64,000 nucleotides of DNA from Nitrospirota bacterium (GTDB lineage Bacteria; Nitrospirota; UBA9217), in NCBI GenBank assembly GCA_963818475.1, contig CAWFSF010000006.1:1312001-1376000 (forward strand), written 5' to 3'. Of the stretch, positions 2,509 through 47,248 are shown in pieces. The notes under the pieces were generated by a model that saw nothing but the letters and a program-made list of their open reading frames with translations, was not told the DNA's origin and made no database searches. The position numbers and the translations under genes are program-made. Each line of letters opens with the position of its first letter. The first letter of the stretch is position 1.

Positions 2509-2585
2509 TGGTCGGGGCGAGCCGATTTGAACGGCCGACCACTCGCACCCCAAGCGAGTACGCTACCAGGCTGCGCCACGCCCCG
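2509..2585 (-). tRNA. tRNA-Pro(GGG)
   Basis: Reverse complement CGGGGCGTGGCGCAGCCTGGTAGCG..CTCGC-TTGGGGT-GCGAG..GTTCAAATC..CGCCCCGACCA, 77 nt; usual ihfA-merR-tRNA-Pro synteny. Confidence 0.97.
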
Positions 2586-33482: not shown

Positions 33483-33558
33483 GGGGCTGTAGCTCAGCTG
33501 GGAGAGCACAAGGCTGGCAGTCTTGGGGTCAGGGGTTCGATCCCCCTCAGCTCCACCA
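33483..33558 (+). tRNA. tRNA-Ala(GGC)
   Basis: GGGGCTGTAGCTCAGCTGGGAGAGC..CAAGG-CTGGCAG-TCTTG..GGTTCGATCCC..CTCCACCA, 76 nt, G3-U70 pair. Confidence 0.97.
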
Positions 33559-44937: not shown

Positions 44938-45276
44938 ACTCCACACTCCGCAATCCGAATGACTATTTCCCATACGCAGTCATCAAGTCCCGGCCTGTAG
45001 CATAGACCAGGCTTGCCCCGGGCTGGCGAGCTGAAGTCCAATTAATTATTTTAATATTTCAAATGGTCATTTCAATATGCGCAATCGCTCTCAATAAGTA
45101 CGACCAGCAGCCGGAATAATAAAATATCAACGGCAATTCCTTTCTCCGGTCGTCACCGGATCGGTGAAATCCCGCGTGTTGAACTAATGTTGAATGTTCG
45201 ATATACTATTCCTGATGCATTCGCAACAAGGAGAGAAAGCCGTCTTTGCGAAAGAGAGCCCTCTTTGGAAAACGTT

Positions 45277-45756
45277 ATGGAACGTGAGCAGGTAAAAGAC
45301 GGACTTCGTGTCGTATCCATCTTTGAAGCGGCAAAAGGACTGCTTGTCTTGCTGACCGGATTCGGGCTGTTGGCGTACATTCATAAAGACGTTCACCTCG
45401 CTGCCGAGCAGCTTGTCCGGCACTTCCATTTAAATCCGGCCAGCCGCTATCCCCGGATATTTCTCGATCTGTCCGACCACGTGACCGACGGGCAGCTTTG
45501 GCTCATGGCGCTCGCTGCCCTCCTCTATGCAGTGGCTCGTTTGGTCGAATCTTACGGCCTCTGGCATGAGCGGCAATGGGCCGAATGGTTCGGTCTTCTT
45601 ACGGGCGGGATGTATGTTCCTATCGAACTGTTCGAGATCACGCGCGGGGTGACATGGCCAAAAGCCGTTCTTTTGATCGTGAATGCGGGTGTCGTGGGAT
45701 ATCTCTCTTTTATCGTATACCAGGCGAGACAAAAGCGTAAACACGCGGGGGAATAG
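45277..45756 (+). CDS. DUF2127-family membrane protein
   Basis: FEAAKG, HLNPAS, ESYGLW..WAEW, YVPIELFE. Confidence 0.88.
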   Translation: MEREQVKDGLRVVSIFEAAKGLLVLLTGFGLLAYIHKDVHLAAEQLVRHFHLNPASRYPRIFLDLSDHVTDGQLWLMALAALLYAVARLVESYGLWHERQWAEWFGLLTGGMYVPIELFEITRGVTWPKAVLLIVNAGVVGYLSFIVYQARQKRKHAGE

Positions 45757-45941
45757 TAATGAATGGCGTCACCTGCGTTCCAAATATGCTGCAAGCTCTC
45801 GCCCAGAAGAAAGTTGAAAAAAGAAATTACCTCATTGGGAATTATTCGTTTCGCCGCTCCGGGGTGGCATGATTTCTCTCTTTCCTATAAACAGGTAAAG
45901 TGGTAGCATAATAGTAAAGATAATATAGATATTTTTCAAAA

Positions 45942-46241
45942 GGCGTTGCCAGGCCGAGACCAAAAGGTCAACGTATTGAGAACTCTGTTGAGGGTTACCA
46001 GCCGATCAAGAAGGAGTTCTAGAGCCGCCGAACAGTTGTTGTAAAGAATCGCTGTTCCCGGCAAATAGTATCCTGAAAGACCGGAGGGAACAAAAGACCC
46101 CGCGTCCGGAGGGAAAAAAGCGGCAACCATGGAAACAATTTCCGCAAAGGATCCACGAAACCGCGGAAAGCGTTTGTATATCACCGCAATTTATACCTGC
46201 GGTTCAACTGGCAAGTTTGAAAATACGGGCCAGACAACGCC
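45942..46241 (+). ncRNA. Candidate ~300-nt structured ncRNA, family unknown
   Basis: Closing stem of 12/14 bp plus a second long-range helix and at least 6 internal hairpins; terminator follows; no credible ORF. Confidence 0.55.
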
Positions 46242-46257
46242 CGTACTTATTCACGAC

Positions 46258-46289
46258 AAAAAGCCGGCAAAACATTTTGCCGGCTTTTT
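46258..46289 (+). terminator. Intrinsic terminator
   Basis: AAAAAGCCGGCAAAA-CA-TTTTGCCGGCTTTTT. Confidence 0.85.
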
Positions 46290-46594
46290 CTCTTCCTTCC
46301 AACGAAGCGCTCTTCGGGCGGACTCATCACACGTCAACAACTCCGCTGCACGGCCCACCCCGCTCCTTCAACGATGACTTTGCTCTTGAACTCTTCTTTT
46401 GAAACATCAACAATAGCCCTTCTCGGAATGAACAGGTCATGCTCAGCATATTGACAACGCAGCGTGAGAGAATTAAAGTTAATCAGGAAAAGAATCGGGA
46501 ATATGCGAACTCCAGGAATAAGGATGAGTACCTTGTCATACTAAGGTAGTTGTCTGACGGTCTGATCGAAGTCAATGGTGTGATGCGGGGAGAA

Positions 46595-47248
46595 ATGATA
46601 ATCATGTTCAAGGACCGCAGCGAAGCAGGGACCCGGCTTTCAGCCCGGCTTCTTCAATACAGAGACAGGCCCGATGTGATAGTTCTGGCTCTTCCCCGGG
46701 GCGGTGTCGTAACCGCCTATGAGATCGCGCGATTGCTGCATGTCCGGCTCGATGTGGTGATCGTCAGAAAACTAGGGTCTCCCGGGCAACCCGAACTTGC
46801 CATGGGCGCGGTCGCGGAAACCGGAGTTGTTGTCGTAAATGAAGACATTGTCGCAGCAGGCGGGGTATCCGAAGATTTTTTACAGCAGGAGATCGAACGT
46901 CAAAAGGGCGAGATCACCAGGCGGGTGGCCGCCTACCGCGCGGGAAAGGGACTTCCCGATCTGGAAGGCATGACTGTCATCCTTGTGGATGACGGGGTCG
47001 CAACAGGCGCAACGATAAAGGCAGCGATCACGGCGCTCAGGAACGAGAAGGTCGCGAATCTGGTCATCGCTTTCCCGGTAGGGCCGATGGAAACCGTAGA
47101 GACTTTGCAAAAGATGGCGGATGAGCTTATTTGCCTCGAAACACCGTTCGGCTTCATGGCTGTTGGAGCGCACTATAGCGATTTCACCCAGGTATCGGAC
47201 AAGGCAGTAGTGGACCTTCTTCAAAGGTCAGCTGCAAAAGCGGCGTGA
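46595..47248 (+). CDS. Phosphoribosyltransferase-family protein
   Basis: FKDRSEAG, LALPRGG, ILVDDGVATGAT. Confidence 0.9.
   Translation: MIIMFKDRSEAGTRLSARLLQYRDRPDVIVLALPRGGVVTAYEIARLLHVRLDVVIVRKLGSPGQPELAMGAVAETGVVVVNEDIVAAGGVSEDFLQQEIERQKGEITRRVAAYRAGKGLPDLEGMTVILVDDGVATGATIKAAITALRNEKVANLVIAFPVGPMETVETLQKMADELICLETPFGFMAVGAHYSDFTQVSDKAVVDLLQRSAAKAA

Follow-up and report, generated by a model that had tools for sequence, protein, structure and literature searches.

Large structured bacterial RNAs of unknown function are rare, and those described earlier have repeatedly proved to be ribozymes, riboswitch-like sensors or scaffolds of ribonucleoproteins (RNPs), with a biology that was unexpected. 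The raiA motif RNA and OLE RNA are large, lineage-restricted orphan structured RNAs, both represented as Rfam families. The subject here is an RNA element at positions 45938-46244 (+) of a stretch of 64,000 nucleotides (hereafter the window) from the genome of a Nitrospirota bacterium (assembly GCA_963818475.1, contig CAWFSF010000006.1). With its -10-like box and its terminator, the element is probably an independently transcribed gene for a structured non-coding RNA (ncRNA), a diverged paralogue in an undescribed family of ~310 nt belonging to one Nitrospirota class. Like the raiA motif and OLE RNAs, as these are generally known, the members of this family run to hundreds of nucleotides, contain numerous covarying helices as well as unpaired nucleotides that are conserved, are encoded by stand-alone genes, are near-universal in one bacterial lineage while absent outside it, and have a function that is not evident from sequence. 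They differ from both in showing no sequence or structure match to them, in belonging to Nitrospirota, in occurring with 1-5 matches per genome, in having two gene types and in possessing an invariant terminal helix.

No Rfam family was matched by the element at gathering or lax thresholds. The Rfam 15 set (4227 models, including RNase P, tmRNA, signal recognition particle RNA (SRP), 6S, OLE, raiA, GOLLD, ROOL, HEARO and riboswitches) gave only two matches at gathering scores in the whole window, both tRNA genes located elsewhere, at 33483-33555 (+) and 2512-2585 (-). A lax scan of 45700-46650 returned 13 weak matches, none of them anywhere near the gathering score, the best being Thr_leader (28.1 bits against 55), which ends in the terminator hairpin, and CsrC (23.1 bits against 61), which consists of that hairpin alone. 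The weak matches to CsrC and mir-3926 are due to the terminator hairpin alone. In 20 homologous loci there were no Rfam matches, and the best-scoring member of the family gave noise only in a lax scan. No published description of such an RNA was found in the full-text literature, although a mention in the supplement of a motif-discovery study is possible.

The genome also carries, elsewhere and above the respective cut-offs, its own genes for RNase P RNA (278.3 bits), 6S RNA (87.6 bits), tmRNA (189.6 bits) and SRP RNA (72.9 bits), which rules out a diverged housekeeping RNA. In the preliminary description of this DNA, made from the sequence alone, the hallmarks of these four RNAs were said to be lacking. 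With 6S RNA (RF00013), a family that has paralogues in some bacteria, the element shares the character of an abundant-type independent transcript whose 5' and 3' ends are paired; however, it has a branched two-domain fold and not a rod with a central bubble. The Y RNAs bound by Ro60/Rsr are similar in their terminal stem of conserved sequence formed from both ends, their 3' U-tract, their variable structured module and the presence of paralogues. In contrast to these, the family is two to three times longer and has no Rfam Y RNA match, and its identity as a Y RNA is ruled out by the occurrence of the TROVE domain (PF05731, Ro60/Rsr) in just one of 64 genomes of the class, a search for which the control genomes were positive.

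Distribution and conserved structure of the RNA family

BLAST against the own genome identified no second copy of the RNA, finding only the window element itself and its terminator, and in 40 relatives it identified one clear homologue (genome G004, 77% identity over 350 nt) and one partial homologue (G006). The copies of the window, G004 and G006 align over the whole element as well as an upstream box, AAAGTGGTAnnATAAT, and these three sequences were used to build a covariance model, R1. With R1, matches were found in 46 of the 64 genomes of the bacterial family, and the own genome proved to have four copies, namely the window element and C2:801628-801933, C5:209527-209827 and C5:451117-451431, the latter three each with promoter-like boxes and a terminator. 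The four are spread over three contigs (C2, C5 and C6) of one metagenome bin. In 72 fetched loci R1 gave 77 matches, 72 of which are full-length (291-323 nt). A broader model, R2, was made from 31 sequences less than 78% identical to each other and comprises ~310 positions and 78 pairs. This model detected the RNA in 63 of the 64 genomes of the window's class, including all 32 high-quality genomes and all 19 genera, with 1-5 matches per genome and more than 100 matches in total. The search at class level returned no genomes beyond these 64, of which 62 matched at E<=1e-5, class, order and family coinciding in this lineage (one order, one family, 19 genera).

Among the genomes searched, the RNA family occurs only in this class-level lineage of uncultured Nitrospirota. 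When the phylum was sampled evenly, R2 found it in all 37 genomes of the window's family (f1) and in none of 113 genomes from 23 other families. Two other phyla, with 151 genomes each (302 altogether) in samples centred on genomes having loci titled Desulfotignum sp. and Acidobacteria bacterium, gave no full-length match; one partial match of 80-90 nt in each of the two, L237 (G232:C76:451-531, 19.8 bits) and L238 (G390:C5:81732-81819, 19.1 bits), are regarded as noise. A pattern scan of named records, which gives the names of members and not their distribution, was consistent with this: among the 80 matches listed, eight were confirmed by R2, all titled Nitrospirota, Nitrospirae or Nitrospiria bacterium, and the other 72 are chance matches, many of them in records named for G+C-rich groups. 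In viral contigs none of six pattern matches was confirmed as a member, which is weak evidence of absence as the exact pattern catches only 16 of 35 known copies.

The window core is a full-length match to R2 (118.1 bits, E 6e-40, model positions 1-310 of 310), the sole R2 match in the window, and scores 293.9 bits with R1. Its highest identity to any other copy is 77% and its median identity is 48%; it is a diverged but intact-looking paralogue. Closely spaced or tandem copies occur at G006:C90:11692-12887 (L009), G016:C3:47629-49244 (L042), G010:C12:350587-351297 and G007:C67:84594-87829, the first of these having three copies within 1.2 kb that adjoin trpE. There are also mini variants of 236-256 nt (27-60 bits with R2; L239-L244, in G010:C15, G079:C143, G064:C90, G044:C77, G058:C23 and G063:C68), which keep the P1 word described below, a -10 box of their own and a terminator of the GCCGGC type, with domain A much reduced.

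For the conserved structure, the 72 full-length copies (median pairwise identity 52%) were aligned by MAFFT and a consensus was derived from averaged single-sequence pair probabilities. These were used in place of RNAalifold, which recovered just 29 pairs from a 32-sequence MAFFT alignment; with the three closest copies it gave 84 pairs, and compensatory changes were seen at 16. An all-against-all covariation scan of columns had too much noise for use. Over the 72 copies, 82.1% of cells are standard-paired, compared with 34.3-45.4% in slid controls (3' partners moved by 1-3 columns), and 67 of the 79 pairs have changed on both sides. Doubly changed cells number 437 against 136-191 in the slid controls and 190.9 +/- 12.7 in shuffles, and none of 500 shuffles reached any of the five measures. 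The homologues and covariation that the preliminary description had looked to for confirmation are thus at hand, with an excess of compensatory changes beyond all 500 shuffles. G-U cells (578) outnumber A-C cells (288), which together with the orientation of promoter and terminator assigns the RNA to the + strand. Taken together, the compensatory structure, own transcription signals, strand bias and lack of coding potential are those by which structured ncRNAs are generally recognised.

The architecture that emerges consists of a near-invariant closing helix P1 (GGCGUUGCC/GGCAACGCC), a small hairpin (P2) and an irregular long stem (P3-P4) leading into two multi-helix domains, A and B. The outer word of P1, GGCGUUGC/GCAACGCC, is nearly invariant in the 72 copies and its inner part covaries (AU:31 GC:13). 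P2, helix 4 of the family consensus, is 88.9% paired with four of its five pairs changed on both sides. P3 reads CGUAUC/GAUACG in other copies of clade II, to which the window copy belongs, and UUUUAAAC/GUUUAAAA or UGAUA/UAUCA in those of clade I, as read from the alignments. Domain A is closed by helix 7 (GGGG/CCCC; 87% paired, first pair GC:27 AU:16) and contains helices 9-12, which are 73-85% paired with compensatory changes at nearly every pair. Domain B, closed by GCCG../..GGCUC, includes the covarying helices 13-17 (77-87% paired) and holds a conserved stem-loop, CUUCACAGGGUC...GAGCCGCAGAAG. A further pairing, of the loop GUUGAGC with the 3' strand GCUCAAC, was dropped as loop variants appeared uncompensated by eye in the 72-copy alignment.

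The 72-sequence structure misaligned several helices on the row of the window copy, a consequence of the divergence of this copy, and its helix coordinates are accordingly those of the three-sequence consensus with G004 and G006. The 5' strand of P1, GGCGUUG plus GGCC, lies at 45942-45955 (+) and its partner at 46228-46241, with 7/7 and 4/4 pairs canonical in the window, G004 and G006 copies; over the longer closing stem GGCGTTGCCAGGCC/GGCCAGACAACGCC, 12 of 14 positions are paired in the window sequence. The P2 hairpin GACC-AAAA-GGUC (45958-45969, +) is canonical in all three close copies. It is followed by the 5' strands of the long-range helices P3 (CGUAUU, GAG) and P4 (CUGUUGAG) at 45972-45992 (+), whose partner segment is 46203-46227. 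In the window copy 6/6, 3/3 and 7/8 of these pairs are formed, and the lone U-U mismatch is A-U in G004. Domain A (45993-46101, +) is closed by GGG (45992-45994) with CCC (46099-46101) and has, in the three-sequence consensus, the stem-loop helices GCC/GGC (46024-46026 with 46060-46062, +) and AACAGU/GCUGUU (46031-46036 with 46051-46056, +). Domain B (46106-46202, +) is closed by CCGGAGG (46106-46112) with CCUGCGG (46196-46202) and contains, in the same consensus, the inner helix GCGG/CCGC (46120-46126 with 46181-46187, +) and, at 46140-46169 (+), the hairpin UUCC../..GAAA. Its pairs are 6/7, 5/6 and 3/4 canonical in the window copy and the closing stem is 7/7 in both G004 and G006. According to the alignments, the 3' strands of P4 (UUCAACUG), P3 (UUU, AAUACG) and P1 (GGCC, CAACGCC) occupy 46203-46241 (+).

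The preliminary description had proposed many of these elements, all of which sit at the coordinates it gave when the sequence is read directly, including the closing stem with 12 of 14 pairs. Its hairpin GACC-aaaa-GGTC, the long-range helix CGTATT/AATACG, the nested GCCG..AACAG..CTGTT..CGGC and TTTCCGC/GCGGAAA are present at homologous positions in relatives. However, three further hairpins, AGAACTC/GAGTTCT, CCGGA/TCCGG and ACCGCA/TGCGGT, are not kept in relatives and represent alternatives specific to the window copy, where they compete with the kept pairs CUGUUGAG/UUCAACUG, GGG/CCC, CCGGAGG/CCUGCGG and GCGG/CCGC. The structural observation therefore stood with respect to its elements, the terminator and the fold energy, and fell with respect to these three hairpins as conserved structure.

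Gene types, transcription signals and expression

A tree of the 72 copies separates clade I (43 copies), comprising the core copy of the genomes, from clade II (29 copies), comprising dispersed paralogues among which is the window copy. Two gene types exist: a core copy that stands back-to-back with trpE, and dispersed paralogues with their own promoter and a separate terminator. The gene trpE, for anthranilate synthase I (PF00425 and PF04715), is divergent from 37 of the 43 clade I copies at 78-196 nt upstream and lies within 700 nt of two more, and the core copy is syntenic across the 19 genera. The flank of clade I copies away from trpE varies, with a methyltransferase gene at 13 loci, a thioesterase at five and an NTP transferase at six. 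Directly beside the 29 copies of clade II trpE was never found, and one of them lies in a tandem array ~1 kb from it.

An extended -10 element, TGnTAnnnT, precedes most copies: in clade II it was seen for 24 of 28, abutting the RNA at a median of 4 nt, and in clade I for 41 of 43, at a median of 53 nt, with the promoter of the core copies ~55-65 nt upstream of the RNA. Between this promoter and P1, ~25-35 nt upstream of the latter, 29 of the 43 clade I copies have the box GATCTTTGAAA (strict pattern), which lies in the intergenic region common with trpE, e.g., at L026:1248-1258 and L078:1965-1975. This box may represent an operator or a processing site, or may belong to a 5' leader. The -10 of clade II is often preceded by TTGACA just 8-10 nt upstream, far less than the usual spacer of 17 nt. 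This short spacing is conserved across genomes (L076, L077, L010-L014 and L017, and in the own genome C2:801560-801627 and C5:209828-209900), the -10 at these loci having the form TGTGGTATAnT, and the arrangement may mark a site for a regulator or a promoter form peculiar to the lineage. At the other end of the gene, 40 of 43 clade I copies have a run of at least five U right after P1 and just five have a separate hairpin terminator, which suggests that P1 and the U-tract of the core copies probably act as the terminator. In clade II a distinct hairpin with perfect pairing, and a T run (T4) after it, is present in 15 of the 29 copies. The members of one subfamily of clade II also have flanks in common, between roughly -100 and +100, and an imperfect direct repeat (TTTCTCGTTTCCCT / TTTTTCGTTCCCTCATC) occurs on both sides.

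For the window copy the upstream box AAAGTGGTAGCATAAT (45897-45912, +) shows little or no variation among the three closest copies and includes the extended -10-like TGgTAGCAT (45901-45909, +), placing a predicted start of transcription near 45916. An AT-rich -10-like sequence had been proposed upstream of the RNA, and the motif proved to be conserved across the family. The intrinsic terminator AAAAAGCCGGCAAAA-CATT-TTTTGCCGGCTTTTT (46258-46289, +) has a stem of 14 pairs followed by a T run and is found, as previously noted, 16 nt past the closing stem. It is symmetric, with an A5 run, the stem and a T5 run, and could stop transcription from both sides.

The RNA lies in a gap between open reading frames (ORFs) that runs from 45757 to 46549, or up to 46604 if the downstream ORF begins at ATG, which bears out the absence of a credible ORF first reported for it. 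ORFs within the family have a median of 84.5 aa compared with 80 aa in shuffles, thus being no longer than these, and their strand and frame differ between copies. On one side the gap is flanked by a gene for a DUF2127 membrane protein (45187-45756), and on the other by a gene for a phosphoribosyltransferase (PRTase, 46550-47248) and then one for a DJ-1/PfpI protein; no transposase was found among the neighbouring genes. A sigma-70-like site, TTGACA-17-TAAAGT (10/12 matches), is present at 46451-46479 upstream of the PRTase gene. A PRTase of the same family is also encoded 3' of the RNA copies in L012 and L043, both of clade II. With regard to fold energy, the minimum free energy of 45938-46295 (+) is -126.7 kcal/mol as against -94.5 +/- 5.7 for dinucleotide shuffles (z -5.62, none of 100 as good). 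The - strand folds nearly as well (z -5.38), so that the strand is not decidable from energy alone.

There is a hint of expression of the window RNA from metatranscriptome run X1, in which one contig of 237 nt (depth 10.3, 95-99% identity) covers 45998-46233; no cover was found in this run on the flanks 45600-45997 and 46234-46700. Runs X5 and X6 gave nothing and X2 contained fragments of relatives only; stretches that lack cover are given no weight. With no Rfam match, conserved promoter and terminator, covariation and an X1 contig confined to the RNA, the earlier reading of the element as a stand-alone RNA gene of unknown class is supported, as distinct from the other part of that interpretation, a sponge for CsrA/RsmA, which is considered below.

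Alternative explanations and biological meaning

Multi-copy genes with promoters and terminators of their own are also known for protein sponges of the CsrB/RsmZ type (RsmX/Y/Z being multi-copy), and the window copy has five ANGGA motifs, where 2.2 are expected, and CCGGAGGGAA twice, both counts agreeing with those first reported. Nevertheless, no CsrA (PF02599) was detected in the own genome, which is 91% complete, and in the class this protein family is present in one of 64 genomes and none of the 32 of high quality, with E. coli, B. subtilis and T. maritima positive as controls. GGA is not enriched over the 72 copies (mean 7.99; dinucleotide shuffles, 7.13), the window copy has its GGA sites (the CCGGAGG segments) in consensus helices, and the sole CsrC match in Rfam is the terminator hairpin mentioned above. 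The conserved long-range, two-domain fold differs from the string of repeated GGA hairpins found in these sponges. The CsrA-sponge option is consequently refuted, within the limits of incomplete genomes, and such a sponge or, more broadly, a base-pairing small RNA is a very unlikely explanation for the family. The multiplicity of copies could instead point to a non-autonomous mobile element, or its relic, similar to a miniature inverted-repeat transposable element (MITE), with GGCGTTGCC/GGCAACGCC as its terminal inverted repeats and the fold as a by-product. The 9-bp inverted repeat is invariant, matches number one to five per genome with an array in G006 and neighbouring copies in G016 and G010, and the paralogue subfamily with the direct repeat has common flanks, all of which would suit an element of this kind. 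Multiple copies had been named beforehand as a sign of a MITE, and by the letter the four copies of the own genome agree with this, but not in spirit: copies within a genome have diverged past detection by BLAST and the core copy is syntenic over 19 genera, at 37 of 43 loci beside trpE, which is the opposite of the MITE pattern. The compensatory changes, with G-U twice as frequent as A-C, indicate selection on RNA, no transposase is located nearby and none of the six matches in viral contigs is a member; mobility is therefore a highly improbable origin of the pattern. Still less credible is a cis-acting leader or riboswitch of the downstream PRTase gene. The RNA does lie upstream of this gene on the same strand, and a PRTase homologue follows the clade II copies of L012 and L043, but a strong terminator and ~260-315 nt intervene and the PRTase gene has its own promoter-like site. 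Within the family downstream genes differ and are often convergent, and trpE is divergent, so that a riboswitch or mRNA leader is unlikely in general.

The constancy of the trpE neighbourhood invites another explanation, that of a regulatory RNA of tryptophan biosynthesis, in which the core copy senses a signal of the pathway (tryptophan, a precursor or uncharged tRNA-Trp) or shares control with trpE and acts in trans on trp genes, with the paralogues being extra or specialised versions. Divergent gene pairs that persist across distant genomes are often pairs of regulator and target, and here the arrangement is kept at 37 of 43 loci across the genera of the class while the far-side flank varies; the GATCTTTGAAA box is conserved in the shared region of 29 core copies, and judging from the distances a T-box or long attenuator on the trpE side would not fit the intergenic space. 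On the other hand, the RNA lies on the strand opposite to trpE and is hence not its leader, none of the 29 paralogues adjoins a trp gene, there is no likeness to T-box or other Rfam regulatory families, and the adjacency may be historical. As an account of the whole family this regulation is unlikely, and a functional link to tryptophan synthesis is a conjecture. The possibility of a catalytic RNA, a ribozyme for some lineage-specific housekeeping reaction, is raised by the size of ~310 nt, the multi-domain fold, the near-universal presence in the class and the conserved unpaired nucleotides, which resemble those of large ribozymes and include the stretches GCAAGUUGAGCGG, CACAGGGUC and CAGAAGC in the alignments. 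However, no Rfam ribozyme family is resembled, RNase P RNA is encoded separately in the genome, domain A is dispensable in the variants of 236-256 nt and nothing points to a substrate, making catalysis a quite unlikely role.

Several points weigh against the favoured reading of the element as an independently transcribed paralogue of a structured RNA family. Among the full-length copies in its own genome the window copy has diverged furthest (118 bits compared with 171-212); it has many non-canonical positions relative to the consensus and could be a decaying paralogue. The structure tested came from the same 72 sequences and thus beats the slid controls partly by construction, while relatedness of the sequences inflates the shuffle test. 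P1, being invariant, is without covariation support for its pairing, and its invariant inverted repeat could equally be a site at the DNA level. Expression is represented by one contig from one RNA library of a kind that can contain DNA, the contigs show neither transcript ends nor strand, and two other runs of the same metatranscriptome study gave nothing. The genomes of the class are all metagenome bins, that of the window being 6.2% contaminated in addition to its incompleteness, and the adjacency to trpE may reflect an inherited gene order.

If the element is such a paralogue, its RNA would act in trans as a compactly folded molecule, most likely within a ribonucleoprotein. The invariant P1 and the 3' U-tail may then be the sequence-specific handle by which a protein binds or the end is formed, with the U-tract and P1 probably doubling as terminator in the core copies, and the covarying domains A and B would supply the functional fold. 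The persistent neighbourhood of trpE hints, as a conjecture, that the RNA could be regulated together with tryptophan synthesis or could act on it. In a bolder and more tentative form, one that is possible although not favoured, the family may be the first seen member of a new class of ornate bacterial RNAs, lineage-defining for an uncultured Nitrospirota class. It may then be the RNA subunit of an unknown RNP or ribozyme, or a trans-acting sensor tied to trpE, with the paralogues, including the minis of 236-256 nt, as specialised versions.

What sets the family apart is the combination of a near-universal presence in a class-level lineage that is represented only by metagenomes, clear covariation, two gene architectures (in one, the closing helix and U-tract of the RNA itself seem to serve as terminator) and a persistent linkage to trpE. 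The outcome is a concrete model (~310 positions, 78 pairs) with more than 100 matches, and ideas that can be tested, namely a binding partner of P1, the link to tryptophan and the modular loss of domain A. Even if it should merely be a stable RNA of minor function, it would still be a new RNA family worth depositing, and the RNA is a candidate lineage marker for this class in metatranscriptomes.

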